Positions 11,934 through 49,017 are shown, counted from the first letter of the stretch. The stretch is 64,000 nt of DNA from a virus (IMGVR_UViG_3300028591_000134:37233-101232); one strand, 5' to 3'. Program-made: numbers and translations. The notes: generated by a model not told the origin, from the letters alone.

Positions 11934-11942
11934 TAAAAAAAT

Positions 11943-11978
11943 AAATCCGGACTACTCTTACGAGCGGCCCGGATTTTT
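11943..11978. terminator. Probable bidirectional intrinsic terminator between convergent blocks
   Basis: AAATCCGG...CCGGATTTTT hairpin with an A-run upstream and a T-run downstream. Confidence 0.8.
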
Positions 11979-11979
11979 C

Positions 11980-13575: not shown

Positions 13576-13657
13576 AATATCTCCATTTAAATCCAGCACA
13601 ATGAGTTCGTTCGCCTTTACAGCATTTTATCATATTTCCTATTCCTAATGTATTCAT
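13568..13657 (-). pseudogene. 29-aa remnant of a homing endonuclease (NUMOD1-like tail)
   Basis: MNTLGIGNMIKCCKGERTHCAGFKWRYYE*; its ATG overlaps the TAA of the upstream ATPase. Confidence 0.6.
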
Positions 13658-14460
13658 TAGTTCTTACTGGATAAGTTCATATCACTAAACAATTCCTCAA
13701 ACGTGTCTTGAGGATTGTCATTAACTTCTTCTGCGAATGAAATGATATTGTCAAAACTTATACAGCTGAAATTCTCAACAATAAAGTCTGTAAGAGGTTT
13801 AGTTTCCTCTTTATCATTCAACTTATCATTAAGAATCTCTTGAATCATTGATGGCTGAAGCTCATCAAACTCTCTCCAGTATCGTATACGAGAACATCTG
13901 TCAAACAGATATTCATTCACATCGTCTGTGTCATTACACGTACACACCACAAGCTTTTTACCCGTAGTATTAATACCATCGAGGATTTTCAGGAGATAGT
14001 CATCATCATAATCTTCTCCAAGTTTATCGACTTCGTCCATTACTACGCATACATCAGTATCACCCAGTCTATTGAACATGTCAACCAACCTAGATGGACT
14101 TACACTACTGTCAATTAATATAATAGGAAGATTGGACTCTAGAGCTATTTCTTTGGCCATTATTGTTTTACCAGAACCTTTAAGTCCGGAAAGCATTACA
14201 CCTGTTGTTCCATCTTCAGATTTGTTATAATGATTTAGCACTCGATTTATAAACTTAATATCATTCTCAGTTTTATAAACCTTTTCTGGCATTTGAAGAT
14301 CCGGAGCAAGCCTTAAATATACAGCGTCAGACCAACGTTCTGACTTTACTATATACACTTTTCCGTTCTCCAAATCATAATCCAAACCTTCAGTTGAAGA
14401 TTTAAAATGGACGTCTTCGCCCACCTTAATAAATTTTTTATTTTCCATGATTTTCTGCAA
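13657..14460 (-). CDS. AAA+ family ATPase
   Basis: Walker A GLKGSGKT, Walker B VVMDEVDK, sensor TCN, arginine finger DRCSR. Confidence 0.9.
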   Translation of the reverse strand: MQKIMENKKFIKVGEDVHFKSSTEGLDYDLENGKVYIVKSERWSDAVYLRLAPDLQMPEKVYKTENDIKFINRVLNHYNKSEDGTTGVMLSGLKGSGKTIMAKEIALESNLPIILIDSSVSPSRLVDMFNRLGDTDVCVVMDEVDKLGEDYDDDYLLKILDGINTTGKKLVVCTCNDTDDVNEYLFDRCSRIRYWREFDELQPSMIQEILNDKLNDKEETKPLTDFIVENFSCISFDNIISFAEEVNDNPQDTFEELFSDMNLSSKN

Positions 14461-14830
14461 TTAATGACTGAATCATTTCATCTACTTGCTTGTGATTTCT
14501 CACAAGAAATAGCTTTGTTTTCGCATGATGCCGTTTCAAGTAATACTTGAACAGCTTCCAACGAATTGGAAAGGAGTCTCCCATAAGACCTTTACATTCT
14601 ACTATAAAACCTCGTCCAACGAAGTCTGGTAGATATGTAATAGGTCTTACTTTTTCTCCCATCCACTCGAACTTTGGAATTAAAGTGAAATGCTTTGGCT
14701 CATATTTAACAGGTATCCCTGCCTTCATAAAAGCTTCATACGTATAGAGTTCGAGTTTACTACGAAAATGTAGTCCATACGCATCGACCTTCGTCGCATT
14801 TCTAACTTTACTTTTAGAGTTTGTCGGCAT
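14438..14830 (-). CDS. Endonuclease, DUF1064 / T7 endonuclease I-like (possible Holliday junction resolvase)
   Basis: FRSKLE...YEPKHF...TYLPDF...IVECKG motifs. Confidence 0.75.
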   Translation of the reverse strand: MPTNSKSKVRNATKVDAYGLHFRSKLELYTYEAFMKAGIPVKYEPKHFTLIPKFEWMGEKVRPITYLPDFVGRGFIVECKGLMGDSFPIRWKLFKYYLKRHHAKTKLFLVRNHKQVDEMIQSLIAENHGK

Positions 14831-14963
14831 ACTCCTCAAACAGCAATATCACTTGTTTTGGATACTCCTTATACTTTTTCAACATAAGTGCTGCAGTGGC
14901 ATATATACCTGTAAAGAAACCGATGCCGAAGAAACCTACGGCAACCAAAATATTAGCTATCAT
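14814..14963 (-). CDS. Small membrane protein (49 aa), not in the ORF track
   Basis: MIANILVAVGFFGIGFFTGIYATAALMLKK...; fills the gap between primase and nuclease. Confidence 0.5.
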   Translation of the reverse strand: MIANILVAVGFFGIGFFTGIYATAALMLKKYKEYPKQVILLFEEYADKL

Positions 14964-15933
14964 ATCTTTCTACTGTTTTAGTTAACCAATCCTTCACGAC
15001 AAAGAACCCGTTATCACGAACAGCATCGGATATGTCCTTTGCCTTGAACTTTTTATGAACAAAAAATGCATCAAATTTGTATTGTCTACTATATTGCCGA
15101 GCATTTAACATACCAGTCCTATCTCTGTCATATAGTATAACTATATGTTTCCACTTACTTCGTAAGCTTTGTAGTATGTCTTCTGGTATAAATGTTGTTT
15201 CACTTGAAGCTGCTATAGCATGATATCCCATCTCATATAGGCACATTACGTCTTTTAAAGATTTCGTAATGATGAGAAGATTTCCACCCTCCTGTGGTAA
15301 CTCAGCAAGCCCCTGAACGTGCCGATTTGTCAGATTGGTACGCCATTTAGTATACTTAGAGGTTAGAGGTCTATAGATTTTAAATTTATCAAAGACCTTA
15401 TACGCATACATAGGACTTGTTTCTTTGTAGGTACCTCTGACGACACTATTACAAAGAAAATATTTAATGCTAAAGACATTGAAATGCTTCAATGTGTCAA
15501 CGGAAATGTGGAATTGCTTCCAGTATCTCTTATCAACCTCTGTAAACGGTTGTCGAACTATTCCGATATCTGTTGGCCCTGAACCCACCGTTTTCACGTG
15601 TGTTGGTTTAACCTCACCGAGCATTGGGTTCATTTTTCGGACGATGCGCAACAGTTCTCGTTCAAGTTGTTCTCTTGTATCGACTCCCTTATACAATTTT
15701 ATGAATTTGAGAGCATTTCCCGCTATACCAGTGCCGTGGTCTTTAAACAATAAATCCCCAGTTTTACTAGGGAATATTGCAAAAGATGGTACCTTATCAT
15801 CTGGCCTTAAAGGGCTATTTAATAATTTACCTAGCTTGAATGTTCCAATATAATACGAATAGATGTCATAATCTGTTACTTTCTCCAATAAGTCTTTGAG
15901 ACTCATTGTAATTGCTGTTTTTGTACTATACAT
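14953..15933 (-). CDS. DNA primase (crAss-type, TOPRIM domain)
   Basis: SPLRPDDKVPSF..FKDHGTG, LIITKSLKDVMCL, LYDRD.TG, KDISD motifs. Confidence 0.88.
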   Translation of the reverse strand: MYSTKTAITMSLKDLLEKVTDYDIYSYYIGTFKLGKLLNSPLRPDDKVPSFAIFPSKTGDLLFKDHGTGIAGNALKFIKLYKGVDTREQLERELLRIVRKMNPMLGEVKPTHVKTVGSGPTDIGIVRQPFTEVDKRYWKQFHISVDTLKHFNVFSIKYFLCNSVVRGTYKETSPMYAYKVFDKFKIYRPLTSKYTKWRTNLTNRHVQGLAELPQEGGNLLIITKSLKDVMCLYEMGYHAIAASSETTFIPEDILQSLRSKWKHIVILYDRDRTGMLNARQYSRQYKFDAFFVHKKFKAKDISDAVRDNGFFVVKDWLTKTVERYDS

Positions 15934-15959
15934 GACATCAAAGTACTTTAATAGTATTG

Positions 15960-16043
15960 TGAATGTGGTAGGATTCGAACCTACGCATTACAGCTTGTGA
16001 TGTTATCTACGGCCGTTACTCTGTCCAACTGAGCTACACATTC
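15960..16043 (-). ncRNA. tRNA-like RNA with a 17-nt loop in place of the anticodon loop
   Basis: Acceptor GAATGTG/CACATTC, D-arm GCTC/GAGT, T-arm GTAGG-TTCGAAT-CCTAC; stem ACGGC/GCTGT encloses CGTAGATAACATCACAA. Confidence 0.75.
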
Positions 16044-16229
16044 AATTGAGAGAGATTTGCTCGCTATTCTACGATCACCCGTAGTTAGTGTTCCTTATAT
16101 TGGCACTCTCTCATTGCAAGTTATTCTTACCTTGCGCCCCTCTTCGTGCGGTGAGTCCGCCAAGAGATGTTACTATTCTATTTACCATTACTCTGCACTT
16201 CATGGTTTTCTCACTTCAAGTAACCGTTG

Positions 16230-16295
16230 TAGCGTGCGGGAGATTCGAACTCCTAACTTCTCTTGCGAGATGTGTTACCATTACACCACGACGCT
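16230..16295 (-). ncRNA. tRNA-like RNA whose anticodon loop is a GNRA tetraloop
   Basis: AGCGT/ACGCT acceptor, GGTGTAATGGTAACAC D-arm, TCTC-GCAA-GAGA, GGAG-TTCGAAT-CTCC. Confidence 0.75.
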
Positions 16296-16429
16296 CCAGG
16301 GGTCAATTAGACCCTCCACCACTGACCTTTTCCTACGGTAGTCAGCACCATCTTGTTTGACCATTTATAATTTCACCTAAAATTCTTGCGGCTTCGTGTG
16401 GTTTACACACAAACGGCCGAAATTCTAGA

Positions 16430-17029
16430 TTAAAAGGGCAGGTCGTCAGCACCTGTAGAGTCTGCAGTCACCGGAGCACTGTTACCAGTGAGCGGGTCGT
16501 TAGGCTTCTCTTCATCAGCCTTCACGGGACGCTCCAGAAGATCGTTCTTCCAAAGCTTAATCTGCGACTCTTCTTTTGCAACTTCCATAGATTCAACGAA
16601 AATACCGTTCTTAGATACCTGAGTATAACCCTTCTTATCATAAGTTACCTTAAGACGTAAAGGACTATTATCACCATCATTAAGACACATCTTAGCCCAA
16701 GTGATCATTTCGATAAATGAAGAACCTTCAAAATCGTTATGACCACCCTTAACTGCATCAATGACCTGCAGAATACGACCGAACTGCTGATTATCACGAC
16801 GCTGTAAATCCTCGTCGGTAGTAATCCACATATTCTTCTCGTTCTTCCACTCAGTCATAGTTGCCGTCTGGCCTTGTTTATTCTCAAAGATAATCTCTAA
16901 GAAATCACGACCCTGAGGTGTCTTATTTACGTTTACCTCTTTCAAGGTAATATTCTCGTTGATGCCTACAGGCATATATGAGGAGGTAAACTCCTCGTTA
17001 CTTGTTGTTGCTGTTTTTGTACTATACAT
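16430..17029 (-). CDS. Probable single-stranded DNA-binding protein
   Basis: In the replication cluster; flexible acidic tail ending DDLPF. Confidence 0.7.
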   Translation of the reverse strand: MYSTKTATTSNEEFTSSYMPVGINENITLKEVNVNKTPQGRDFLEIIFENKQGQTATMTEWKNEKNMWITTDEDLQRRDNQQFGRILQVIDAVKGGHNDFEGSSFIEMITWAKMCLNDGDNSPLRLKVTYDKKGYTQVSKNGIFVESMEVAKEESQIKLWKNDLLERPVKADEEKPNDPLTGNSAPVTADSTGADDLPF

Positions 17030-17227
17030 AATTTTCCTTCTGACTTTATAGTTCTTAATTATAAATTAAATTTTAATGTCTATTCCTATGTAATATTCCA
17101 TTTGAACCTTTGTAATAATTTGTACTAGGACCGTTATAACGTTCAATTGGTTTATTATTAACTCCAAATACTTCATCAAAATATTCTCTATCGTCGTTAT
17201 TCATATCTATTAAAATTTAATTTACAA

Positions 17228-17971
17228 TTATTCAGATTTATAGATTTTATTCCAATAGGTCGTTATGCTTCCGTCTTCATTTCCAGTGGCAATAACGACA
17301 TCGCGTCCCGCAATATGACGGGCTCTGGCTTCCATAATAGTACCGTCGCCCCCAGATTTAAATGATATGTGGGTCTCATTATCCTTTCGGTAAACGTATC
17401 CAACGGCATCTGCCATTCCACATACAATTTTTCCGAGTTTGCCGACGAGATCGATTTCTTTGGCATTGACCTCTTCGCCGTCTTTATCGGTGATACTATC
17501 TTTGACATGTCCTACTAAAATAAATTCATCACATAGGTCTTTGAACATATCAATGACCTTTTTTACAGCATCTCTTAAGTACTTATATCCTGCTCCGCGT
17601 GCAAGAGTGGTGACATCATCACCCTTCCAATTCTTGCCAAGCTCAGTTTTTCTGTATAAAGTACATGCGTACGACATACAAATATCCTCAAGCCTGGTAG
17701 CATTATCTATAGTGATGCGACGATAAAAGTGTTTTCCTACTTCTTCATTCTTGGCACGTATGGCACTTGCAATTTCTCCTAAATCATTAATCGTTCGAGC
17801 TTGTATAGCAAGAGCATCAATGAAGTTTGTACCTCCCTCAAGGTCAATTATCAAATTGTTTGGTAACTGAGCAAGACAAGAGGTCTTACCTGATTTAGGC
17901 AGGCCATACAATATTAAGTATTGTGGGTCTGTTGAAACTGCAGGAACTGGTTTTGTAGGTAATGTAAGCAT
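17228..17971 (-). CDS. AAA_24 / Sak4-like ATPase (single-strand annealing)
   Basis: LYGLPKSGKT, IIDLEGG, ITIDN, ILVGH; adjacent to SSB. Confidence 0.85.
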   Translation of the reverse strand: MLTLPTKPVPAVSTDPQYLILYGLPKSGKTSCLAQLPNNLIIDLEGGTNFIDALAIQARTINDLGEIASAIRAKNEEVGKHFYRRITIDNATRLEDICMSYACTLYRKTELGKNWKGDDVTTLARGAGYKYLRDAVKKVIDMFKDLCDEFILVGHVKDSITDKDGEEVNAKEIDLVGKLGKIVCGMADAVGYVYRKDNETHISFKSGGDGTIMEARARHIAGRDVVIATGNEDGSITTYWNKIYKSE

Positions 17972-17974
17972 ATA

Positions 17975-18409
17975 TTATCCTTTAATAGTAATAAACAGAT
18001 TGATGATAATCTTCTTCGTTGTCTTAGGAAGACGATTGTAATAGCTAATATCCTCGAGCATATAAAGCGGAATCAACGTGCTACCGATCTGAATCTCATC
18101 CTCAAAGAATGTGATGTCATTGTTGTCAATCTTGTAAATACTCTTCTTGGGAGTATAGTTAGCAAGGAACTTAGCAGCCTTAGTGAACTCGTCATCGAAG
18201 TCACCCTTCAGAATGCTGCTGGTACGATTAGGAATAATGATGTGGTCATCTTTCTTCTCTGTATCGCGAAGATAACTGAGATAAGGATTTGCCTTAATCA
18301 GATTAGAAAGAATAAGGTCATCAAGACTCTTAGAAGGGTTGGTGTTACGAAAGGTATAGTTACCAGTGTTCTTCTCGCTATTGTTAATCTTAATCGTGTA
18401 GTGTTTCAT
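17975..18409 (-). CDS. Hypothetical protein
   Basis: 144-aa ORF in operon context. Confidence 0.7.
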   Translation of the reverse strand: MKHYTIKINNSEKNTGNYTFRNTNPSKSLDDLILSNLIKANPYLSYLRDTEKKDDHIIIPNRTSSILKGDFDDEFTKAAKFLANYTPKKSIYKIDNNDITFFEDEIQIGSTLIPLYMLEDISYYNRLPKTTKKIIINLFITIKG

Positions 18410-18445
18410 ATTTTCAGCCTAATTTTTAAATGAATACTTGTCAGA

Positions 18446-19369
18446 TTAGCATTCAATCAAGTTATTGTATTGCAGGTCATTCTCGAATTCTAATATACAC
18501 GGCTTACCTGCGTCTCTATTTTTAAGCAGGTGCATGTATACTTTGTTTGCTGTAGGTAGACGATTTGGACCATACTCCACAATGTTTAATATCTCTGGAC
18601 GATGTAGTACAAAAACATAATCACTTGCTTGAAACATTGCGTCTGACGATGATAAATCACTCCTCATGGGATAATGACTCATGGGGTTGTTTATCCTTTC
18701 CGGCTTCTCTATTTCGCGATTCATCTGAGCTATTTGAATTATACTCGTTAGAGGTAATTTCTTACATCTAATAAATACTTTTTCAAGTTCGCTGGTCGTC
18801 TCAATAACACTGCCTATTTGTTTTGTTAACAGAGTATGATCGAACGTAATTACGAAATGCTTACCAGTACCTTTTACATACTGGTCATAGAAGCTTCTTA
18901 TAGCTTGTTCTATTTGCATAGGAGTACCAGGGTCATCTATAAAATAGATTGGGTATTCCTTTAGCTGGTTTGATACTGCGATGACTCTTCTGAAGGTCTC
19001 GTCATCCAGGTCCGTTTCCGAACTATACAGGGTAGAAGTCGTTTTTCTTAGCTTACTTGAAAGCGTTCTTCCAACCTGCCTAAATCCAACCATTTCTAAC
19101 GAAAAATTAAGAACAACTATATCTTGGTCAGGATTGAGGTCTATGATATCAGTAGTTAGTGTATTACACAGACTGGATTTGCCTGAGCCACTTATTCCAG
19201 CGAATGTGTAGATAGTATTTGGTTCAATACCTCCCATGCATTGCTTATTTAGTTTCTCCCATCTAGTCTTCAGCGAGACGATATTGTGGTTTCGTCTTCC
19301 TTCTATGTAGTTTATAGCTTCTTGAGCTACAACTGACATTGGCCGAATATTAAATGAGTTCTGTTCCAT
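18446..19369 (-). CDS. DnaB-like replicative helicase (C-terminal ATPase domain)
   Basis: AGISGSGKS, FSLEM, ITFDH, AQMNR, SDL...Q.SD, LKNR motifs. Confidence 0.92.
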   Translation of the reverse strand: MEQNSFNIRPMSVVAQEAINYIEGRRNHNIVSLKTRWEKLNKQCMGGIEPNTIYTFAGISGSGKSSLCNTLTTDIIDLNPDQDIVVLNFSLEMVGFRQVGRTLSSKLRKTTSTLYSSETDLDDETFRRVIAVSNQLKEYPIYFIDDPGTPMQIEQAIRSFYDQYVKGTGKHFVITFDHTLLTKQIGSVIETTSELEKVFIRCKKLPLTSIIQIAQMNREIEKPERINNPMSHYPMRSDLSSSDAMFQASDYVFVLHRPEILNIVEYGPNRLPTANKVYMHLLKNRDAGKPCILEFENDLQYNNLIEC

Positions 19370-19919
19370 AATAAGTGTTTGTTGGGACTTCTACATTATT
19401 CATCTCCTCTTCAGACTCTTCCCATTGATGATCGACTAACCAACGCCACATAGTCTTCATATAGCTAAGCTTTCCTTCTTTCATCTTTTTTGAGATTTCG
19501 AAGTCTAAACATTTTATAATATGTTCTGCCATAGCTGTACTATTACCACATATATTGTTGAATAAATGTCGACACTTATTGACATTTGCCCTGAGATAGG
19601 CTTTAGATCCATCAGGGCGTAGTACATATACTGGGTATCTCTCATAAAACACATCAAAATAACTTTTTGACGGTGTCATAAAGTCTTTAAGCTTTTGAGT
19701 TGCTTCATAAGTGATAAAGTCACCTCTCTCTATCGAGGTGATAAGGTCTTTCTGAACTAAGTATGATATTTCGTCGTCACTGATAAGGCTGACTAATCGA
19801 TTGACGTCTTGATTCTTGGTATTTTGATTCTTATCTAATACCATACTTAGGAATACTAACTGATTCATATTGAGTGCTTCTGGGAGTTCCAGAAGCTTGG
19901 TATCTAATTCAATAATCAT
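19350..19919 (-). CDS. Hypothetical replication-associated protein (possible helicase loader/initiator)
   Basis: Between PolB and helicase; FYERYP and YMKTMWRWL..HQWE resemble phage replisome-organiser C-termini. Confidence 0.55.
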   Translation of the reverse strand: MIIELDTKLLELPEALNMNQLVFLSMVLDKNQNTKNQDVNRLVSLISDDEISYLVQKDLITSIERGDFITYEATQKLKDFMTPSKSYFDVFYERYPVYVLRPDGSKAYLRANVNKCRHLFNNICGNSTAMAEHIIKCLDFEISKKMKEGKLSYMKTMWRWLVDHQWEESEEEMNNVEVPTNTYYGTELI

Positions 19920-19947
19920 CTCTTATATACTCTGATAAACAAGCTGG

Positions 19948-21834
19948 TTACGAAAATAATTCTAATTGTATTTCAGTGAAGTTAACGATAACCTTATTAG
20001 CTTCACTGATATAGTATCGGTAGTTAATCTTTCGATTTTCTACGTTAGTATCATCAAGAGTATTCAGGATAGTAACTCCTGAATCCTTGAGCATGTGTTC
20101 TAGATCATTCTTTGATGTACCTTTGTAGATATATGGTCCGTTGATGCTTGCGTAATATCTATTTATACGCTGTACTTGAGTTTCTCCCCAAAATACCTTA
20201 AACTTTTTATCTACTCTCTGATACATCAAGAAATCTCTTATGTCAGTCTGACGTTTTATAAAGTCTGCAACTGGTTCTTTTGTGAGAAAATAGTTTATAA
20301 CAGCCTTAGGAATGATAACTGGCGCCATACCTTTCCCAAGTCGGTTTTCTGTTATAAACATACCTTTTTTCTCTATCAGTTTTGGGTCATGAGATTCTGA
20401 CCACCCTTCTTTGACACCAAAATAGTCATTGACTGCGTACTGATAAAACGCTTCATAGCGATCCTCTTCAAAAAACAAGTGTGTAATGTCTTCAACCTCT
20501 TTGATAGCCTCTCCAATAGCCTCAGAAAGGTCCTTTTTAGCCACGTACATCACGCCATCTGTATTCACCTGAATAATCTCACATCCAAGTGAAACAAGTC
20601 GATCTGTGAGCATTAGAAGTACTAATTGCCCATTTATTCTAATCTTAAAGACTGAGAATGGATCGTACATCCAGCTTGTTTCTTGTTGCATTTTTCCTGT
20701 GACAGAGTTAAGAGTTAATTTTAGAGCCTCACTCTTAAGCTTCTCACCGCTATGTTTGGCTTTAACTCGCTGCTCATATAAGCTAACGTAAACCCGCCAA
20801 AATTCTTCTCCTAAATGACGCGGAACCCATTTGTATTTGACAATAAAGCTCGGATACATACTCGTAACATCCGCATGTCCAATGAATTCATTCTCCTTAG
20901 GAACGTAGATCCGTGGCGTATTAATGGAGTGTATACCTCCTACACCTACAGATAGCGTTGTATTTGAGAGCACAAACCGCTTCTCATAGCCTTTGCGTTC
21001 TTTTGAATAGACTACTTGCTCCTTCATCTCTTCAAGAACGGCTTGTAATTTTGGATTTTTATAATGTATTGTTGGAAGAATCACATCTTTTAACGGAATG
21101 TAATCCATTGGAGAACGCATTGTTTCTAGTTGTTTCTTGCTTATACCTGTAAGCTCACAATATTTTTGTGCTAACAGTGTTTCTCCAAATTTAACGCTAT
21201 CCATAGAATAAGCGTTAATTCCGTATTCTTCTTCTATAAACTTTCTTAAAGCAATATCTTTAGATAGCTTATTCAGAAGTTCAGTTGTAGAGTCTACATC
21301 GTTGACGTTATACTCTATCATACTGTCGATTTCGTCCTCTGGTAATGGACTATCGAAGTCGCCTTCGTATTCTCGTACATTATGATAGTGCATAGTTACC
21401 TGCATTTCTTTGAGACCCACTCGTAGTTTGCTACTGAACTGCAGGGTTAGTAAATCCATAGATTCAAAATAATTTGCATACTTCCATCTTTTGAATTTAC
21501 TGGTATCCCCTTCTTCTGCTGTCACTATTGTATTAGAGAGATTAAATAATGATTGACATATTCGAGCATAATACAACTGTTCTAGTTTATAATAAAAATC
21601 GACGATATAGTTTATCACCACATCGTCGTAATGTTTGTTATTATAACCACAAAACATTCGTTGCCCATTGTTTTCATAATAGAAGAAATCTACTAATTCT
21701 TTTAGTTGATTCTTTCTTTTAGAAATCTCAAACTTGTACAATTCATTTGTTTCAGTATCTCTACAACAACAATGAAAACAGTTCGGAAATATCTCAATGT
21801 CGTATACTACGACAGATTGATTGTGTATTACCAT
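19948..21834 (-). CDS. DNA polymerase family B
   Basis: Exonuclease motifs YDIE, GYN..HYD, YNVND; polymerase motifs DVTSMYPS, KLTLNSVTGK, NTDG. Confidence 0.93.
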   Translation of the reverse strand: MVIHNQSVVVYDIEIFPNCFHCCCRDTETNELYKFEISKRKNQLKELVDFFYYENNGQRMFCGYNNKHYDDVVINYIVDFYYKLEQLYYARICQSLFNLSNTIVTAEEGDTSKFKRWKYANYFESMDLLTLQFSSKLRVGLKEMQVTMHYHNVREYEGDFDSPLPEDEIDSMIEYNVNDVDSTTELLNKLSKDIALRKFIEEEYGINAYSMDSVKFGETLLAQKYCELTGISKKQLETMRSPMDYIPLKDVILPTIHYKNPKLQAVLEEMKEQVVYSKERKGYEKRFVLSNTTLSVGVGGIHSINTPRIYVPKENEFIGHADVTSMYPSFIVKYKWVPRHLGEEFWRVYVSLYEQRVKAKHSGEKLKSEALKLTLNSVTGKMQQETSWMYDPFSVFKIRINGQLVLLMLTDRLVSLGCEIIQVNTDGVMYVAKKDLSEAIGEAIKEVEDITHLFFEEDRYEAFYQYAVNDYFGVKEGWSESHDPKLIEKKGMFITENRLGKGMAPVIIPKAVINYFLTKEPVADFIKRQTDIRDFLMYQRVDKKFKVFWGETQVQRINRYYASINGPYIYKGTSKNDLEHMLKDSGVTILNTLDDTNVENRKINYRYYISEANKVIVNFTEIQLELFS

Positions 21835-21862
21835 ATGATACAAAGATACGTTGGTTCAATTG

Positions 21863-21937
21863 TTGCGGGGGCGGGAGTCGAACCCGCGTAGAATTGCTTA
21901 TGAGACAATGCTGGACCCACCTCCAGTCTACCCCGCG
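21863..21937 (-). tRNA. tRNA-Met(CAU), initiator-like C1:A72 mismatch
   Basis: CGCGGGG/CCCCGCA, ATTGT-CTCATAA-GCAAT, GCGGG-TTCGACT-CCCGC; atypical D arm. Confidence 0.8.
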
Positions 21938-22037
21938 ATAAAACTGCAGAACGACGAAACTGCACAGCGAAAAAAAGATGTTAAACATTCGCCTTAACTG
22001 GGTTATATTACGCGCCAAACCCCGTCGTTTTTAATAT

Positions 22038-22829
22038 CTAATTCGTCTTGCAAGACGCTAATAACTTTCCATACTTATTATAGACTTTGACTTCAATACA
22101 ATCTTTGTCTTTTATCGTCTTTGCACGACTACGTAATATGTCTTTTATAACATTCAATTGCGTAAATTGTGTCTTTCCCGCGAAAGGATAACCGATGACA
22201 ACAGGATCTCCTTCTTTTTCATACATGACTTGACCGTCGGGTCCCTCATATACGAGAAAAACCCTATAGAAGGGTTCTCTTATGCTAACTTTCCCGTATG
22301 CTCTGCTGAGAAAGTTTCGTACATATTCGCGGTGTATGTACTGTTGTGTTTTATGCTGTATTTCCAGTGCCTTTGGAAAGAGATCTTCTGCTAGCTCTCT
22401 TTCCGTAGGTCCTGGGTTTTTCTTTTCGAATTTTTGCATCTTATGCTCTTCATAAGCATGCATTAGTGCTGCAAATCCCAATCGCTTGGGCTTATTTTGA
22501 GCGGTCATCTCAGCTATTTGGGCTCGCGTGAGACGTATCTGATACTTTATTCGAGGAGGAGCCTTACGGGCTATGGTTTGCGAGGCAATAGGGACTATTT
22601 TATTCTTTTGGATGCTAGATTTTATTAAATTCATATTCCTCGTATCGCTGTCATAATGCAACATAAATTGAGCATTAAATGCGCGACATAGTTCCCTTAG
22701 AGGCATCCTATGTAGCATACTAACGAACTTTATGCCTCTCTTGGTTGTAAGAAATTTATCTATTTTTTTGATAATTTCCTCTTCTTTCTGTATCTTGTTC
22801 AGTCTATATTTGATATCTTTCTGTTTCAT
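22038..22829 (-). CDS. Basic hypothetical protein (ends in TAG)
   Basis: 263-aa ORF. Confidence 0.7.
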   Translation of the reverse strand: MKQKDIKYRLNKIQKEEEIIKKIDKFLTTKRGIKFVSMLHRMPLRELCRAFNAQFMLHYDSDTRNMNLIKSSIQKNKIVPIASQTIARKAPPRIKYQIRLTRAQIAEMTAQNKPKRLGFAALMHAYEEHKMQKFEKKNPGPTERELAEDLFPKALEIQHKTQQYIHREYVRNFLSRAYGKVSIREPFYRVFLVYEGPDGQVMYEKEGDPVVIGYPFAGKTQFTQLNVIKDILRSRAKTIKDKDCIEVKVYNKYGKLLASCKTN

Positions 22830-22923
22830 ATTGATTATGCTTTAGGTTAAACATGTTAACTTGTGGATATAACAGGCCTCGATCCTGTCAAGCGCGCCAA
22901 CACCGCGTAATCCTATCTGATAC

Positions 22924-23478
22924 TTATGCAGCAATAAGGTCTTTAATGTCGTTGTCAATCTCAGTATCGAAATCAATTGACGTGTCACTGTTGTATGCCT
23001 CGATACGAGCGTCATACTTATTTATATTGAGCTGAATATCGTTCATCAGCTGAGTAATCTTAGCGGAAGTAAATATCTCACGCTTACCAGTGCCTTTGAC
23101 ACCCTTACGAGCCTTCTCCTTGGGGTCAATCGTCTTCTTGATAATCTCCTTCCAATGAGCAATCTTCTCCTTCTCCTCGCATGCTGCAAAGATTGTATAA
23201 TAGTGCTTCTGTTTCTCATCCTCATAATTAAACGAGGTGATACCGTTGTTGATGGCATTCAACATCAACTTAAGCTTAATGCGAGTCTCAGACATCTGTG
23301 TAATCTTGTTGTAAAGCTCTTTAAGGTCTAAGCCAGAGCCCATACCAGCCTTCACAGCCTTGTTAGACATCACATTTTCAAGCTTGATAATATGCCAATA
23401 CTTAGTAATAGTCTCATCAAGCTTCTTACGAGCGATAATAATATCTTTGGAATTCATCTTTGTCGTCTTCTTTGTCAT
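22924..23478 (-). CDS. Hypothetical helical protein
   Basis: 184-aa ORF with strong codon bias. Confidence 0.75.
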   Translation of the reverse strand: MTKKTTKMNSKDIIIARKKLDETITKYWHIIKLENVMSNKAVKAGMGSGLDLKELYNKITQMSETRIKLKLMLNAINNGITSFNYEDEKQKHYYTIFAACEEKEKIAHWKEIIKKTIDPKEKARKGVKGTGKREIFTSAKITQLMNDIQLNINKYDARIEAYNSDTSIDFDTEIDNDIKDLIAA

Positions 23479-23540
23479 AATATATATTGATTTAATTAAA
23501 CTTATTGATAACTTAGAAGAATTCGAGCTCGTCTACCTAG

Positions 23541-23611
23541 TTGGGATACCCCGATTCGAACGAGGGACAACAGCTCCAAAAACTGTTGTGTTACCACTAC
23601 ACCATATCCCA
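23541..23611 (-). tRNA. tRNA-Gln(UUG)
   Basis: TGGGATA/TATCCCA, ACAGT-TTTTGGA-GCTGT, CCTCG-TTCGAAT-CGGGG. Confidence 0.92.
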
Positions 23612-23730
23612 ATATTACCGGCTTGCCGTAAGTAGGTATAACCTCTTACGTTAATGCAAGCCAGTTGTTGTTTATGTTTATACTCCTTCCGAATAGATTC
23701 GTTGGTAGTAATCAGTAGCACTTGCTCTGA

Positions 23731-24300
23731 TTACACGTTGTCAAACGTATATCCGTCAAATTTTACTCGAAGATGGAGTAGTACATTTCCTACACTATCT
23801 CGGACGGGGATGTATCCCTTGTCCTCAACTACTACTTTGATATTCTTACGAACATCATCGTTATGAACGTTCTCAACTTTGCTAGTCCACGGTGTTGCAG
23901 TAGAACTCAGTCTACTACTTGCTGCGTAGCGTGCTACATCAAAGAGACGATCGATAATTTCGTTGTATTTCCTATCAAGAACCGCACTTGCGATAATTTC
24001 TTGAGACAGTCCTTTAAGGACTGTATTTCGGTTCATATTATCCGTCATTCCAACCAACGCCTTGAATGTATTAAATGCAAAGTCTTTGAAGCTGATGGTT
24101 TTCTCAAGACCAAACAAACGATTCCACCACCTGAAGCTCCTCTTGCCCAGCACGAGAGAGCCGTCTTCGTTAATATACGAATTTTTATAGGTTTCACCTT
24201 TGTCTATGTCTACGAGTACAGATTCAGCAATTTTAGAATCGCTAAGTAGGATTTGCATCAGCTGAACGTGATCTTTATCTACGATAGCCGAATTCATCAC
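23731..24300 (-). CDS. Hypothetical protein, in frame with the upstream gene across TAG-TAG
   Basis: 189-aa ORF. Confidence 0.75.
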   Translation of the reverse strand: MMNSAIVDKDHVQLMQILLSDSKIAESVLVDIDKGETYKNSYINEDGSLVLGKRSFRWWNRLFGLEKTISFKDFAFNTFKALVGMTDNMNRNTVLKGLSQEIIASAVLDRKYNEIIDRLFDVARYAASSRLSSTATPWTSKVENVHNDDVRKNIKVVVEDKGYIPVRDSVGNVLLHLRVKFDGYTFDNV

Positions 24301-24303
24301 CTA

Positions 24304-32975: not shown

Positions 32976-33473
32976 ATGTTAATAGAAGTTATTTGTAAAG
33001 AATGCGGTAAAGCATTTATGGCTGATTCTCGTGAGATAAACCGAGGACATGCGCAATTTTGTAGTATTTCGTGTGCCATTAAGTACAGAAACAAGACAAA
33101 TCCATATCATAAACACATATGTGTTCAATGTGGTAAAGAATTTGAAAGTAAAAGTACAAAAGTTAAATACTGCTGTAAGAGTTGTAAATATAAATATTAC
33201 AGATCTCTTATGAAAACAGAATTAAATGGCACTAAAAAATTACAGGACATTCTTAAAGAATTACCTTGTGAAAATTGCGGATGGAACATAGGACCACGAG
33301 ACGTTCATCATATAATTCCCGTCTCGGAAGGCGGAAAGAATGAGTTTGACAATCTCATTACACTATGCCCAAATTGTCATCGACTTGCTCATAGAAACCT
33401 TCTTTCGAAGGACAAGTTGATTGCACTTGTTAACTTACGGACTATCTCATCATCTTATGACATTGCTGCATAA
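32976..33473 (+). CDS. HNH endonuclease with zinc-ribbon repeats, antisense to its host intron
   Basis: CKECG..FCSISC, CVQCG..YCCKSC, CENCG..DVHHIIPVSEGGKNEFDNLITLCPNCH. Confidence 0.9.
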   Translation: MLIEVICKECGKAFMADSREINRGHAQFCSISCAIKYRNKTNPYHKHICVQCGKEFESKSTKVKYCCKSCKYKYYRSLMKTELNGTKKLQDILKELPCENCGWNIGPRDVHHIIPVSEGGKNEFDNLITLCPNCHRLAHRNLLSKDKLIALVNLRTISSSYDIAA

Positions 33474-33864
33474 GAGTTGGGCGCTCGAGCTGGTAATTAA
33501 GAGAACTATATCTCTCCAGTAGTCTCTGCACTTTTCGAGAGTGTACTCTCGACTTAGCTCAGGATTAGCATGCACAATGTTAGTTTTGAGCTATTATTAT
33601 GTTTAGCTTTCCCTGAATTCACCCAATTTTGTCATATACATTACTGTATAAGCGAACCCTATGATTCGAACCCTCGTCCAACAGCTTATTCTGGGACACG
33701 CTAAGATTGTGAGCAAGTGTGGGAGCGACCCACAAATGCCCTAGGAAGCATTCTAAGGCGTTCTGAGGCGTTTTATCTACCTGGTGTGGGTAGCTAATCC
33801 ACAAAAAGTTTTAATGCGCTTCGGAGGCCTTAAAATGCGTTGTATGTTGTGCACGGTGATATGA

Positions 33865-43284: not shown

Positions 43285-43306
43285 AGGCGTCGTAAAATTT
43301 AAAATT

Positions 43307-43735
43307 ATGGCAAAGATATTACGTGTAATTGAGCCGTTCTTCATCGCAGAAGTCGGTGATAAGTTTGAATTTGACGCTAATAAAGGCGTCTATGTTATAG
43401 AGAAGAACGAAGAGTTCTATAAAATTGCAGGCGATACTAGCAGTGAGATTAACTCATCGTATTCTTCAACATTCGAGATTTCAAAGAGTTATGCTCAACA
43501 GCTCTTAGATGAGGGATACCTCGAGGAGTATGTAGAGAAAAAGGATAAGAAAAACGATAAGATGTTCGTAAACGTGTTCGACGAGATCAACGGACTTATA
43601 GAAAAATATGAGTACGATCTTGCAAACGTTGATGAAGAGCTTAAGAATGAGCCGGAGTGTGTAAGACTTGAGAAAACCACAGTGCTTACTAATCTTTTAA
43701 AGGTTCTGAATTACCTTAAAGACTTGAAGAAATAA
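43307..43735 (+). CDS. Hypothetical protein
   Basis: 142-aa ORF, first of the rightward operon. Confidence 0.8.
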   Translation: MAKILRVIEPFFIAEVGDKFEFDANKGVYVIEKNEEFYKIAGDTSSEINSSYSSTFEISKSYAQQLLDEGYLEEYVEKKDKKNDKMFVNVFDEINGLIEKYEYDLANVDEELKNEPECVRLEKTTVLTNLLKVLNYLKDLKK

Positions 43736-44160
43736 TGGACAAAGAGAAGACAATAGACCAATCGGCGTTAGCAGAAAGTGTAGCGAAGAGTATACAATAT
43801 GAATTTCTTGATCATTTTCTCGTTAAACCCCTGGATCCGGTCAAAGTTAAGAAAGAGTTTAGTAAACCTGTTTCAACTGGTACACCCGTAGAAGATGCAA
43901 ATGGAGTTAAAGCAGAAGACTTTGACAGTGTTGAAACAGAGGTAAAAGAGGTTGATTCTGATTATAGGACAGCTGTTGTAATAAAACTCGCAAAGTCTTA
44001 TGAGAAACAACTTGCAGATCCGGAGCAAAACAAATACCTAAACGAAGTCATAAACGTTGGAGACGTAATTGTAATAAGGGAAACATCTGGTTTACGATTC
44101 GATCTAGTGAAAGATAGTCGATTAATTAGGTATTACGATATTATCGGAATTGTGAAGTGA
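43735..44160 (+). CDS. Possible GroES-like co-chaperonin
   Basis: LDHFLVKP...AVVIK...INVGDVIV...LIRYYDIIGIV follows the GroES pattern. Confidence 0.55.
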   Translation: MDKEKTIDQSALAESVAKSIQYEFLDHFLVKPLDPVKVKKEFSKPVSTGTPVEDANGVKAEDFDSVETEVKEVDSDYRTAVVIKLAKSYEKQLADPEQNKYLNEVINVGDVIVIRETSGLRFDLVKDSRLIRYYDIIGIVK

Positions 44161-44372
44161 TAACAATAGAAGACGTAGCTAAAGAAGTAGCAAAGAGAAC
44201 AAACTTAGATATAGATCTTGTTTCTACTATATGTAAACATCCATTCTCATATACAGTAGACTTGATGAAAGATGTAGATGAAACTAAAGATATACTATTC
44301 AATGAGTTGTTCAAGTTTAAACTGAAGAGGCGTTTTAAAGAAAATAAGACAAACGAATATAAATCCAAATGA
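44157..44372 (+). CDS. HU/IHF-like DNA-binding protein
   Basis: IEDVAKEVAKRTNL...ILFNELFKFKLK. Confidence 0.6.
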   Translation: MITIEDVAKEVAKRTNLDIDLVSTICKHPFSYTVDLMKDVDETKDILFNELFKFKLKRRFKENKTNEYKSK

Positions 44373-44737
44373 AGAATTTATTTATTACAGAGCGCGGTGC
44401 TATTGAGATGGTGAACAATGAACCCGTATATAAAAACTCAGATCGTAATGCAATCGATAATGTATATCTGATTACAGAAGATACTCATATAGTTTACAAC
44501 AGATATGACGGAAAACGCATCGAACTCAATGCAGAAGCTGGAGATATTTTAATTAAGTTCTACGAAAGTACGTTTTCATCTCCGATTATAATTGTACATA
44601 GTGAAGAGTGGAAAAACAACATTCTCGCATACAATGAGGCGGAGCAGAAACGTAAAGAAGAGTGGGCAGCTAAAGCCGCAAAGAGCAACAATGTGGTTAC
44701 AGAAGAAATATCAGAGTCACAAGATTTAACAGATTAA
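44369..44737 (+). CDS. Hypothetical protein
   Basis: 122-aa ORF. Confidence 0.75.
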   Translation: MKNLFITERGAIEMVNNEPVYKNSDRNAIDNVYLITEDTHIVYNRYDGKRIELNAEAGDILIKFYESTFSSPIIIVHSEEWKNNILAYNEAEQKRKEEWAAKAAKSNNVVTEEISESQDLTD

Positions 44738-44741
44738 TATT

Positions 44742-44993
44742 ATGAAGAAAAAGACATTTAAGCCTTCCTATGTTGTAGATCTCGATGAGATTGAAACTCT
44801 TGCAGACATTCCTGTAGCGTTTGCTCTTGCGAAGCACAATGCTCATCTCGCATTAACAGATGAAGAGCTTCAAGATATAATAGATGCAGCTACTCCTAAA
44901 ATCACATTCATATATTGTAAGTGTGAGTGTGCTAAGAAAAAGCCTTGGTATAAGAGGTTCTGGAATTGGCTGACTAGGAAGAATAAGAAGTAA
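44742..44993 (+). CDS. Hypothetical protein with basic amphipathic C-terminus
   Basis: Ends KKKPWYKRFWNWLTRKNKK. Confidence 0.75.
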   Translation: MKKKTFKPSYVVDLDEIETLADIPVAFALAKHNAHLALTDEELQDIIDAATPKITFIYCKCECAKKKPWYKRFWNWLTRKNKK

Positions 44994-45184
44994 ATTACTT
45001 ACAGTCGGAGGATTGTGCCTTGAAAGTCTATACCGACTATAACAAAGAGGCCCAAATACAGTTGCGTATACTGTGAATACGACGGTCTGGATGAACCGAA
45101 AATGGTGTAGCGCTCACTAAATTCATCCCACAATACAGCGCTCACTGCTGAGAGTGTGAGATTGCTATTGTATTTAAGATTTTA

Positions 45185-45234
45185 GGTGGTTATGGTACGG
45201 CTTAGGCTGAGGGGTTCGATTCCCCTACCAACCA
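45185..45234 (+). ncRNA. D-armless tRNA-like element ending CCA
   Basis: GGTGGT..CGGC-TTAG-GCTG, AGGGG-TTCGATT-CCCCT, ACCAACCA. Confidence 0.6.
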
Positions 45235-45269
45235 CTGGTCCATGGTGTAATGGTAGCACGGGAGGCTCT

Positions 45270-46264
45270 TATAGTAATTTAATGATTAATTGAATGAATT
45301 TATGACAAATAAAATATACGAATTGACTGACGAACAGTTTGTTAATTTGATTAAAAACAGTACAAATATATCTGAAGTTTTATTCAAACTTGGTTATACG
45401 GTAAAAGGCAACTCTTGGGGGTTTTCGCAAGTTCGAAAACGAATGACCGACTTAAACATTTCAATGTCACTTTTTAAAGGCAAAGGAGCCGCCATTGAAA
45501 AAACTAGAAGTGGCGCATTGACTGCAGAAATGCTGTTCAAAGAGAATTGCAAACACAACAGAACTTGTCTCAGAAGATTTATTGTAGCCAATGACATTCT
45601 TCCGTATAAGTGCGCAATTTGCGGTACTAAAGAATGGAACGGTAAAACTCTTAGTTTAGAATTAGATCATATAAACGGAATTAATAACGATAATCGTTTG
45701 GAAAACTTAAGATTTCTTTGTCCTAATTGTCACAGCCAGACTACAACGTATGGTAGTAGAAATCAACAGCGAAACGAATCCAAGTATGAAATTACAGAAG
45801 ATCTCAGACAGCTTGTTGAATCTACTTACGAAAAAGAAAAAAGTGTAAAACGGGTTTCTGCAGTATTAGGCATGCGTAGATGCGTTGTAACACAAATAGT
45901 AAACGAGTCTGGTCAAAAACATTCAAACCAACAATATGTTATACGATACGATGAAAACTGGAACGAACTTAAACGATATGGAAGTTTAAGCGAATGTGCG
46001 AGAGATTTAATAAACGCTAACGAAATAAAAACAAATCACGTATCTACTGCAAGGCGCTCGATACAAACGAACGCAAACAAGAAACAATTGTGGTTAAATA
46101 GTTATTGGATTACGTTGGATGGTAGCGGGATAATAAATAATCCGTTATTAGAATCTTCTCTAATTGACTCGGAAAACAATGTTGACGAGGCGCAAGCGAA
46201 AGCAGCGTGACAGACTGAACGAGAAGACTGGGTTTAAGACCTGGATGCAACAGTCGGGCAAAAG
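45270..46264 (+). mobile_element. Group I intron inserted after U35 of the suppressor anticodon
   Basis: Exon ends in U and intron ends in G; guide GTTGGA (46114-46119) pairs with TCT|AAC with G.U at the junction; P3 TCTTCTC/GAGAAGA, P7 GACTG/CAGTC. Confidence 0.82.
45302..46210 (+). CDS. Intron-encoded HNH homing endonuclease
   Basis: CAICG...LELDHINGINNDNRLENLRFLCPNCH; homologous to the tRNA-Leu intron HNH. Confidence 0.92.
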   Translation: MTNKIYELTDEQFVNLIKNSTNISEVLFKLGYTVKGNSWGFSQVRKRMTDLNISMSLFKGKGAAIEKTRSGALTAEMLFKENCKHNRTCLRRFIVANDILPYKCAICGTKEWNGKTLSLELDHINGINNDNRLENLRFLCPNCHSQTTTYGSRNQQRNESKYEITEDLRQLVESTYEKEKSVKRVSAVLGMRRCVVTQIVNESGQKHSNQQYVIRYDENWNELKRYGSLSECARDLINANEIKTNHVSTARRSIQTNANKKQLWLNSYWITLDGSGIINNPLLESSLIDSENNVDEAQAKAA

Positions 46265-46343
46265 AACCCTCCAGGCCCGGGTTCGATTCGATGGTGGGCC
46301 GACCAATACAGTGAAGACTGAAAACTTATAAATTAAACACATT

Positions 46344-46901
46344 ATGACGATTAAATTTAAGAGACTTAATGATAAGGCAGTGATGCCTGTTCGCGCTCAT
46401 AAGAATGACGCAGGATTCGATTTGACTTCTACCAGTGTAACTACTGAGGTGAGTGAATGTGGACAATTAGTACTTGTATATCATACTGGAATTGCAGTAG
46501 AGATTCCCGATGGATACTTCGGAATGCTCGTATGTCGTAGTTCTATTAGTAAAAAGAGCCTTGCTCTTACTAACTGTGCTGGAGTTGTAGATTCTAATTA
46601 CAGAGGTGAAGTCATGGCTAAGTTCAAGGTGACTACTGACGTAATTCCTGCTCTTTATAAGGAGGGCGAACGTTTTGCACAGCTACTTATACTTCCTGTT
46701 CCAGAGGTAGAATTTGAGGAAGTTGATGAGCTTAATGAAGATGAGCGTGGCGAAAACGGCTTTGGTAGTACGGGTACAGAAGAGATAGATAGCGCACCAG
46801 TCGCATCCGAGGGTTCTCCGGAAGATAAAAGCGAGCTTACAAACCCGATGATGTCTGACAACGGTAGCGGCGGGGAAGCAAACATCCCTGAGCAGGCATA
46901 A
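46344..46901 (+). CDS. dut: dUTPase (trimeric)
   Basis: DAGFDL, RSS, GVVDSNYRGE, RFAQL, RGENGFGSTG. Confidence 0.95.
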   Translation: MTIKFKRLNDKAVMPVRAHKNDAGFDLTSTSVTTEVSECGQLVLVYHTGIAVEIPDGYFGMLVCRSSISKKSLALTNCAGVVDSNYRGEVMAKFKVTTDVIPALYKEGERFAQLLILPVPEVEFEEVDELNEDERGENGFGSTGTEEIDSAPVASEGSPEDKSELTNPMMSDNGSGGEANIPEQA

Positions 46902-46957: not shown

Positions 46958-46985
46958 ATAGGGGGTCCTGAAAGGGGCTCCCTAT
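46958..46985 (+). terminator. GC-rich hairpin after dUTPase (possible terminator; no U-tract)
   Basis: ATAGGGGGTCC-TGAAAG-GGGCTCCCTAT. Confidence 0.4.
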
Positions 46986-47037
46986 CCCCATATATGAATA
47001 TTCATTAATTAAAAGACGTGTACGTCACAAATATAAT

Positions 47038-49017
47038 ATGATAGAACATAAACTTTTATACTATCCTAGAAAGGCGCAATTTGAATAGGAGAAAGATAAT
47101 ATAGCCGATACCTCAATTGCGTTTATTGCAGATAGTGGTACCATATACACACATAAGCATGAGTTTGGTGGCAATGGTGGCGGTACTAATACAGAATATA
47201 CCTACGAAATATCTAAGTAGTATACAGACGATCAGGTTACCCAAGCTGTCGGACGAATGATGGACGCCGTAGATGCTAAGATTACAGACTTTGCTACTAG
47301 GAATTATGTAAACAGTTCTCTTACTGCATACATGCAGGGACTGAATATAACTGATAAAGTTGAGCAAATTTTAAATGCAAAAGAACCTAGTTGGACAGCA
47401 TTAGTTTCGAGGATTGGAAGTCTTGAGGGACAAGAATAGAATATACTTGAGCAAATAGCAAGCATTAAAGCTTAGATTGTAGACGATGGTAATGGCGGTT
47501 CTTATCCGCAGATAACTCTTGAGACGATATACAGTCTTCTCAATGGTGATGATGATACCGCTAAAGAAATCGCTGCAAGAATCTTTATGCTTGCAAACGA
47601 ATCCGGTTCAGAAATACATCTTGATGCTGACAGAATATACTTCGGCAGCGATACTAATAATAACTAGTTGAAAATGTATATTCGCGGAGCCATCGATGAA
47701 GTACTTAGTGTAACAGTTACAGATCCGGATACAGCATTTACATATGCCGTATTACTTGCTTCAGGTCTTAAATTTCAAGACGATGAGACTAAATTGTGGT
47801 TAACACTTGCTGACGGATTGAAACATACCGATATAAATAGCAATAGTGCTCATAATGGAGAACATGGGTATTGGCTTAAGAAAGATGGTAGTGGAGAACT
47901 TGCATTTGGCAACATTACTTGGGATTCTAATGGCAATCTTATTACACACGGTCTGATGCTTAAAGAAGCTGAAGAGATGGGTGCCCCAAATTCGTTTATA
48001 GTAGATTCTGTGGTATTATGTCCTGCAGCTAACCGTCCCGGTGTGTCAGATTCTCAGAGCATTAGTTATTTTGAGATTATAACCTATCATATCTGCAAAG
48101 CTGGATTTATTATAAAACAGGGAGAAGCTATATTATCTAATAATTATTTCATGACTGCGGATGAAGATCCGCAAAGGTATGTAAGCGTGTGGACAAACGG
48201 CACGTATGGAGTAGCTGCAGATTCTACTTTATATACTGTTGGATATAGGGCTTATAGGCTGCCAGCCATTAGTGCGTAGAGAGTTCTTGCCGAAATTAGT
48301 AGAAATATAACGAACGATACGTGGCAAAATCTCATTAAAAATAGTAATGGAGAATATATATTTGAAAACGGAGAGAACGTCTATGTAGGATTTCCTGGAC
48401 AAATAAGCATTGTTAGTTCTAATTCGGGTTCTATATTTGTAGGGGCTGTCGATGGTCCTGATGGTAGTGATGTATTCGAAGCTGCGGCAGATGTTTTACG
48501 AACTAATGTATATAACGCTTTAACTAATGACGGTTAGTGGTAGTCTCCAACATATACATATAAGGGAGAATACGATAGTAGCGAAACATATTAGAAAAAT
48601 GATATAGTATCGGTAATTTATCAACCGGCATATCCAGGCAGTTATTACGATTTTGTTAATTTTTTATGTTTGCGTGATTAGACTGAACCTTCAAGCCCAA
48701 ATCGCGATGCCGAATAGACCGATGATACCGATTGGGCCAATTGTAGTACTAATGCCAACTTATATAGGTTTAATGTGGGGTAGAGTCCGCTGTCTGTAAA
48801 TAGTGCTGGGTGGACGATTTCTAATGCAGCTCCATAGACTACAGATTTTTCTTACACGGATACAAGTAACAATCTATAGTATGTATAGATATATAATATT
48901 GGAAGCACTTATAAATATTCTATAAGGCCGAGTTTAGTTACAAACTTTAGAACGGAACCAAAACTTTTCTATGGCACTCATATTGTTTAGTGGAATAATG
49001 GTCTGTTCGATTGGTAA
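47038..49017 (+). CDS. Putative tail fibre/structural protein (659 aa), many TAG read through
   Basis: Single frame from ATG 47038 to TAA 49015-49017; DGSGELAFGNITWD motif. Confidence 0.75.

Follow-up and report, generated by a model that had tools for sequence, protein, structure and literature searches.

A mobile group I-type intron very probably splits the anticodon of the amber-suppressor tRNA gene in a TAG-recoded crAss-like phage

The window, the whole stretch of 64,000 nucleotides analyzed here, corresponds to the 3′-terminal 64 kb of a virus record consisting of one contig of 101,232 bp, which CheckV rated 100% complete. Its TerL gene (61859–63946) contains seven in-frame TAG codons, and the encoded protein is 77% identical to TerL of cr272_1 (Buhlduvirus porcinus, Suoliviridae, Crassvirales); thus, the virus is a crAss-like phage. 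On the plus strand of the window, two halves of a tRNA gene are separated by an insert that carries an ORF for an HNH endonuclease, and a dUTPase gene (dut) directly follows the split tRNA locus. The features of the locus are listed in Table 1.

Table 1. Features of the split tRNA locus and of the proposed ribozyme core, in window coordinates
Feature	Position	Strand	Remarks
tRNA exon 1	45236..45269	+	Acceptor 5′ strand, D arm, anticodon stem GGAGG, loop CUCU (C34, U35)
Intron, group I-type, 995 nt	45270..46264	+	Ends fixed by comparison with uninterrupted alleles
Putative hairpin ATTTAAT-GATTA-ATTGAAT	45277..45295	+	Downstream of the 5′ splice site, before the ORF; in all loci
HNH endonuclease ORF, 302 aa	45302..46210	+	Pfam PF01844, 24.6 bits against a cut-off of 21.4
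Putative internal guide GTTGGA	46114..46119	+	Directly 5′ of P2; TTGGA invariant in 35 loci
P2 hairpin	46123-46131 with 46140-46147	+	G46127 bulged; four pairs compensatory; RNAalifold agrees
P3 5′ strand CTTCTC	46155..46160	+	Pairs with 46221-46226 in 35/35 loci
P4-P5-P6 domain	46168..46208	+	Compensatory changes in P4, P5, and P6a; RNAalifold predicts the same helices
P4	46168-71 with 46186-89	+	
P5	46175-77 with 46181-83	+	
P6	46190-93 with 46205-08	+	
P6a	46196-97 with 46202-03	+	Closing a GAAA loop
P7 5′ strand C-(A bulge)-GACTG	46211..46217	+	Includes the G-binding G-C pair
P3 3′ strand GAGAAG	46221..46226	+	Pseudoknot with P7
P8 hairpin CTGGGT-TTAAG-ACCTGG	46228-33 with 46239-44	+	13 sequence versions, all 6 bp paired
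P7 3′ strand CAGTCG	46251..46256	+	Partner of 46211 and 46213-17
Omega G, terminal base of the intron	46264	+	Eight bases intervene after P7
tRNA exon 2	46265..46305	+	A36, A37, C38, stem CCTCC, T arm, acceptor 3′ strand
Predicted exon-exon junction		+	GGAGGCTCT/AACCCTCC; acceptor-stem bases TGGTCCA...TGGGCCG

Exon 1 ends in ...GGAGG-CT-CT, and exon 2 opens with AAC-CCTCC and closes with a discriminator A and an encoded CCA. The initial annotation had claimed that the removal of 45270–46264 gives an anticodon of CUA, and this was borne out when ARAGORN was run on the sequence spliced in silico (45236–45269 joined to 46265–46305): a 75-nt tRNA(cta) was called, which forms a cloverleaf with a 7-nt anticodon loop. 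The U that ends exon 1 at 45269 and the G that ends the intron at 46264 were also as described. From the unspliced native sequence, no tRNA was called by ARAGORN, its intron option included, nor was the split gene matched by the Rfam tRNA model, which agrees with the expectation that standard tRNA scans overlook the gene.

The T arm of exon 2 is irregular (CCGGG-TTCGATT-CGATGG). The initial annotation had noted an imperfect T-stem, and the stem indeed has one mismatch and one bulge, but the same arm is present in uninterrupted alleles of the gene. The irregularity is a conserved trait of this suppressor tRNA family and not a defect. The tRNA body had been likened to the tRNA-Gln of the phage, which held for the D arm and U1 only; the overall likeness was limited, with 59% identity to the phage tRNA-Gln(UUG) versus 61% to tRNA-Lys. 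Directly abutting the 5′ end of the suppressor, a tRNA-like minihelix (45185–45235, plus strand) was observed that combines an acceptor-like stem with a T arm (GGGG-TTCGATT-CCCC) and has neither a D arm nor an anticodon arm. The minihelix is kept at this position in both intron-bearing and intron-free relatives (L150, L114, L144, and L013), and it would be freed by 5′ processing of the suppressor tRNA.

Reading TAG as sense opened long ORFs among the late genes on the plus strand (5547 aa with 75 TAG codons, 2111 aa with 45, and 1358 aa with 18), and the early replication genes on the minus strand have almost no in-frame TAG. When 76 TAG sites of the window were aligned to cr272_1, the codons opposite were CAA at 23, CAG at 8, and TAG at 5 sites, which corresponds to Gln codons at 31 of the 76. 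The log-likelihood of the residue at TAG in this comparison was −163 for Q versus −234 for the next best residue, and in the reverse direction, TAG codons of cr272_1 lay opposite Q of the window 15 times. Q was also the best fit in a comparison with an Azobacteroides phage, a sparse sample with Q at 5 of 15 TAG sites, and TerL alone provided six informative TAG sites with K, Q, and S mixed, too sparse for assigning the residue. These codon alignments show that the phage reads TAG as Gln, in agreement with the TAG = Gln assignment in crAss-like phages by Yutin et al. 2021 (PMC7886860). The suppressor would accordingly be expected to be charged with Gln.

No other CUA tRNA was detected in the complete genome among seven tRNA-model hits and five tRNAs called by ARAGORN, and a regular-expression scan of the genome for CUA stem-loops with a nearby T-loop retrieved nothing tRNA-like beyond the split gene. 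The initial annotation had pointed out that a second, intron-free CUA tRNA elsewhere would speak against its reading; neither the tRNA models nor the scan recovered one from the complete genome. Three tRNA-model matches in the window have abnormal anticodon arms, namely 15960–16043 (−) with a 17-nt loop, 16230–16295 (−) with a 4-bp stem and a GCAA loop, and 52497–52585 (+) with an extra segment of ~17 nt, and none of these aberrant elements carries a CUA anticodon.

Relatives with a split allele were collected from IMG/VR (14 contigs by a 22-mer taken from the 3′ region of the insert and three more by the HNH protein) and from metagenomes (44 contigs by a 20-mer), in addition to a Bohxovirus record in GenBank (PV686213.1). 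All 33 distinct loci that retain both exons had the insert at the identical site, ...(C/T)TCT / insert / A(A/G)(C/A). The anticodon-stem halves pair across the ~1-kb insert in these 33 loci, with about 16 sequence versions, such as GGAGG/CCTCC, GTGGG/CCCAC, CCTGG/CCAGG, AGTGG/CCACT, GGGAG/CTCCT, GAAGG/CCTTT, and CGGGG/CCCCG, and the joined products of 27 loci were called tRNA(cta). One deletion derivative (L068; CYGL01002933.1) has the 5′ exon and ~34 nt joined to the 3′ strand of P6; having lost the ORF and P1′–P6, it is presumably a dead suppressor gene.

Uninterrupted alleles (contiguous GGAGGCTCTAACCCTC; loop CTCTAAC) were found on >111 viral contigs versus 14–17 with the split allele in the collections searched. 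The uninterrupted tRNA of a 106-kb contig (L150) equals the joined exons of the window at 75 of 79 positions, and the differences lie in the acceptor stem, where they compensate each other as a base-pair change. L150 has the same T arm, the upstream minihelix, and dut directly downstream, and it is TAG-recoded. TAG-recoded cr272_1 also has an uninterrupted tRNA(CUA), annotated as tRNA-Gln, at 12606–12679 directly before the dUTPase gene. As uninterrupted alleles are known, the boundaries of the intron are exact and cannot be slid. When the two genes after dut were compared with the related loci by tblastn, nothing was found; those genes are variable.

The uninterrupted tRNA at the same spot in TAG-recoded relatives indicates that the intron is a mobile passenger. 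The CTCT/AAC site is polymorphic for its presence among relatives, and the intron encodes an HNH protein of the PF01844 family; by sequence, the intron, its homing-type HNH gene, and the polymorphism together look like the signature of a selfish element.

These alleles also bear on whether the split tRNA is a dead gene, with TAG being read by a host suppressor, an odd phage tRNA-like element, or an undetected tRNA. Such decay does occur in the family (L068), relatives whose intron ends in A at omega should not ligate by standard rules, and several aberrant tRNA-like genes lie in the window; however, the exon halves pair with compensatory changes in 33 loci, the exons of the window are near-identical to an uninterrupted allele with the acceptor change compensated, the ribozyme core is conserved with covariation, and the genome offers no alternative CUA arm. 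We therefore consider a pseudogene highly improbable.

The final 151 nt of the insert, from the guide to omega G, fold as a compact group I core without P9. The helix order is P2-P3-P4-P5-P6-P7-P3′-P8-P7′, in which P3 and P7 cross to form a pseudoknot. In the core alignment of 35 distinct loci, 99.5% of 1301 cells were paired, and 11 pairs showed changes on both sides (64 cells); none of 500 shuffles was as good, and slid partners paired at 30–47%. RNAalifold, which was blind to the manual model, predicted P2, P3, P4, P5, P6, P6a, and P8. The end pair of P7 switched from G-C to A-U in 12 loci. Within P7, C46211-G46256, the bulged A46212, G46213-C46255, and A46214-T46254 were invariant in the 35 loci, but because the pattern collecting the relatives fixed the 5′ strand of P7 and the 3′ strand of P3, the invariance of these two strands is partly by construction. 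We take this arrangement (C-G, bulged A, G-C, and A-U) to be the guanosine-binding site, like the G-site of Tetrahymena. The pairing of the putative hairpin near the 5′ end of the intron is unproven because only one-sided changes occur there.

The guide GTTGGA was located where the initial annotation had placed it. Its GGA would pair with U33-C34-U35 of exon 1 as a 3-bp P1 with a U45269·G46117 wobble, and its GTT with AAC of exon 2 as a 2–3-bp P10; the partners of both putative helices are invariant across the relatives and show no covariation. GTTGG[AG] occurs once in the intron, and as 0.31 chance occurrences per intron are expected from shuffles, the motif alone is weak. P1 and P10 would follow from the position of the guide directly 5′ of P2, where the group I topology requires it, and from analogy. 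An alternative guide, GGAGCC at ~45486 (6 bp with GGCTCT), was discarded as a chance match that is not conserved in the Bohxovirus copy.

The initial annotation had suggested a search with group I covariance models, and this did not support it: Rfam RF00028 (Intron_gpI) gave no match at E ≤ 10 on 44900–46500 or on the core alone (46095–46275). RF00028 does detect two other introns in this genome. These further group I introns are located in the window at 31769–31971 (−) and 33427–33673 (−), score 63 and 66 bits, and are each near an endonuclease-sized ORF. An alpha_tmRNA match in the region (19.8 bits against a cut-off of 50) was rejected as an unstructured chance alignment. No second copy was retrieved from the window with R1, a covariance model derived from the alignment of the 35 loci. 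With only 9.3 bits (E 2.4) for a genuine group I intron of this genome, R1 does not link the intron families, the model being too sequence-specific (effective sequence number of 1.13).

The silence of RF00028 and the low score that R1 gives to a bona fide group I intron could be read to mean that the insert belongs to a different class of intervening or mobile sequences and is excised in some other way or by proteins, and the absence of P9, the tiny P5 and P6, and the omega A of some relatives would fit this reading too. We nevertheless hold it to be extremely improbable in view of the canonical helix order, the P3/P7 pseudoknot, the A-rich J4/5, the bulged-A G-site, the U at −1, and the omega G, features that together are diagnostic of group I. 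The core helices with the pseudoknot and the two terminal bases thus sustain the central claim of the initial annotation, that a group I-type intron splits the anticodon of a suppressor tRNA. Very probably, the locus is the amber-suppressor tRNA-Gln(CUA) gene of the phage, into which a mobile group I-type intron has inserted between nucleotides 35 and 36 of the anticodon; the intron would be self-splicing.

The HNH ORF begins 33 nt downstream of the 5′ splice site and thus lies in the P1 loop; it ends with a TGA stop at 46208–46210 in J6/7. Its last ~32 codons cross the guide, P2, P3, and P4–P6, so that the coding sequence overlaps the first two thirds of the core. The compensatory changes that fall inside this coding sequence argue for selection at the RNA level. 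A ribosome finishing the ORF and a folded core presumably cannot share one molecule.

The window copy is canonical in having U at −1 and G at omega. Among the 33 distinct related loci, the omega base is G in 23 and A in 10 (L001, L002, L008, L010, L012, L014, L032, L042, L059, and L066). Omega A is found in a clade with the tail GGTTTAAC/TA and independently in L010/L020, which represents two independent origins. The omega-A loci have an unchanged G-site and an intact HNH ORF, their P2 and anticodon stem covary within the clade, and they are TAG-recoded. In textbook group I chemistry, an A at omega should block exon ligation. With a canonical G-site retained, either the rule does not hold strictly in these loci or the core model is partly wrong, and the clade may be a naturally occurring exception to omega G. 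Two other explanations were rejected. Sliding the junction to gain an omega G is impossible because the intron runs T...A and is flanked by the final T of exon 1 and the initial A of exon 2. A tie of omega A to the recoding of both TAA and TAG with a UUA anticodon was dropped, since L012, L032, L042, and L066 fit TAG-only recoding downstream.

The relative Bohxovirus ‘endotrachealis’ (PV686213.1; L071 and L072) has a complete genome in which no other CUA tRNA was found. Its late genes open only with both TAG and TAA read as sense, for example at 8425–24627 (−) and 60977–64507 (−), and one ORF of 5400 aa contains 64 TAG and 31 TAA codons. In a protein 96% identical to those of relatives, 5–6 of their TAG sites are TAA, and the substitution spectrum has no G-to-A bias. 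No UUA tRNA was found in PV686213.1. The TAA codons reflect a reassignment of both stop codons or, alternatively, an error of assembly. Rfam also identified RAGATH-15 and RAGATH-12 RNAs and a permuted tmRNA in L072 (22765–23054, 23588–23666, and 30579–30768).

For the window copy, we propose that the pre-tRNA is transcribed together with the TAG-free genes at the start of the late operon. The exon anticodon stem, together with a short P1 (UCU/GGA, with the U·G wobble) and a short P10 (AAC/GUU), would present the splice sites to the core, and guanosine-initiated self-splicing would join CUCU to AAC; the resulting tRNA would decode UAG as Gln in the late genes. The HNH protein needs no suppressor because its ORF has no in-frame TAG; it presumably cuts uninterrupted alleles in co-infecting relatives and would spread the intron by homing. 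As the split tRNA is the sole CUA decoder of UAG detected, TAG decoding and late gene expression would need splicing.

In-frame TAG codons number zero in the genes at 43286–44993, the HNH gene, and dut, and 16 in the gene after dut (46972–49017). The initial annotation had read this as a bootstrap order serving a splicing-gated switch of the genetic code. The TAG-free genes were confirmed, but not a bootstrap design: uninterrupted L150 and cr272_1 have the same gene order, which thus belongs to the tRNA locus and not to the intron. Likewise, the logical dependence on splicing stands, whereas an evolved switch is not supported, the tRNA being uninterrupted in such TAG-recoded relatives.

A purpose-built gate would mean that the intron was kept since its splicing, or the competition between HNH translation and core folding, times the switch to TAG = Gln. 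This would suit a suppressor that is the only CUA tRNA and lies after the TAG-free and before the TAG-rich genes, an ORF crossing the guide and P2–P6 so that ribosomes and ribozyme folding must compete, and an intron core under purifying selection, although such selection is expected anyway for a ribozyme in an essential gene. We judge the idea very unlikely, as the tRNA is uninterrupted in TAG-recoded relatives that share the gene order, uninterrupted alleles far outnumber the split ones in the collections searched, and the HNH gene and the presence/absence polymorphism are traits of a homing element. There is no evidence for an evolved gate because the uninterrupted relatives share the order and form the majority. 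A kinetic gate, in which each pre-tRNA is either translated for the HNH ORF or spliced and the readability of UAG in the TAG-rich virion and lysis genes is delayed, is also unlikely. Most likely, the code depends on splicing as a side effect of the landing site, which would be the same for any intron in an essential gene.

Recoded (TAG or TGA) crAss-like genomes without a detectable suppressor have been described repeatedly (PMC7886860; PMC12386605, on the Zeta group, 2025; 10.64898/2026.08.21.746148, a 2026 preprint). Suoliviridae are included among them, and host suppressors or very divergent tRNAs were invoked in these studies. The suppressor of the window went unreported by annotation because it is split by 995 nt, and an intron-split suppressor before dut would explain at least part of the gap. 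It also offers a rule for annotation, which is to seek two tRNA halves flanking an HNH gene upstream of dut. Full-text literature searches retrieved no account of a phage suppressor tRNA that contains a group I intron. If our reading is right, phage tRNA genes join the known hosts of group I introns, and here the expression of an altered genetic code depends on a ribozyme step. The core would be a very compact natural one of ~150 nt, overlapped by a protein-coding frame, and could be useful for ribozyme work.

Group I introns are known from 21 settings in the anticodon loops of bacterial and plastid tRNA genes, for example, tRNA-Leu UAA, fMet, Arg, and Ile, and U at −1 with G at omega was reported for 98.5% of 5292 introns, with no omega exceptions (Williams 2020, bioRxiv 10.1101/2020.01.27.920355). 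The omega-A relatives, if they splice, would bend this near-universal rule. Like the anticodon-loop introns of bacteria and plastids, the window intron is of a self-splicing type with U at −1 and omega G, and it hides its gene from ordinary tRNA finders. It differs from them in its phage host and in its tRNA, a stop-codon suppressor on which the whole altered code depends. It also has an HNH ORF in the P1 loop that overlaps the core, lacks P9, is silent in Rfam searches, and has omega A in some relatives. Its insertion after the fourth nucleotide of the loop (CUCU/AAC), ‘Sup.4Ug’ in the notation of Williams, is distinct from the bacterial and plastid settings. The short P1 and P10 would lean on the exon anticodon stem, as they do in the Anabaena tRNA-Leu intron according to Zaug et al. 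1993 as cited in PMC3984707.

According to Hausner et al. 2014 (PMC3984707), every phage intron known at the time resided in a protein-coding gene, although phages have many tRNA genes. The window intron resembles the T4 td/nrdB/sunY and SPO1-type HNH introns covered there in being mobile, residing in a conserved essential phage gene, being polymorphic among relatives, and having an ORF for an HNH-type endonuclease that reaches into the ribozyme core; unlike them, it has a tRNA as its host gene. The closest counterpart of the gene itself is the suppressor of cr272_1 (NC_055903.1; Yutin 2021, PMC7886860), which shares the locus before dut heading the late genes, the loop CUCUAAC, and TAG = Gln, whereas the window copy is split by the insert. 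TRNA inserts in a TAG-recoded phage also recall the Lak megaphages, in which ‘enigmatic’ short unclassified tRNA introns were described (Devoto et al., bioRxiv 10.1101/356790). The Lak inserts are short and were not reported in a suppressor, whereas the window contains a 1-kb group I-type ribozyme with an HNH gene.
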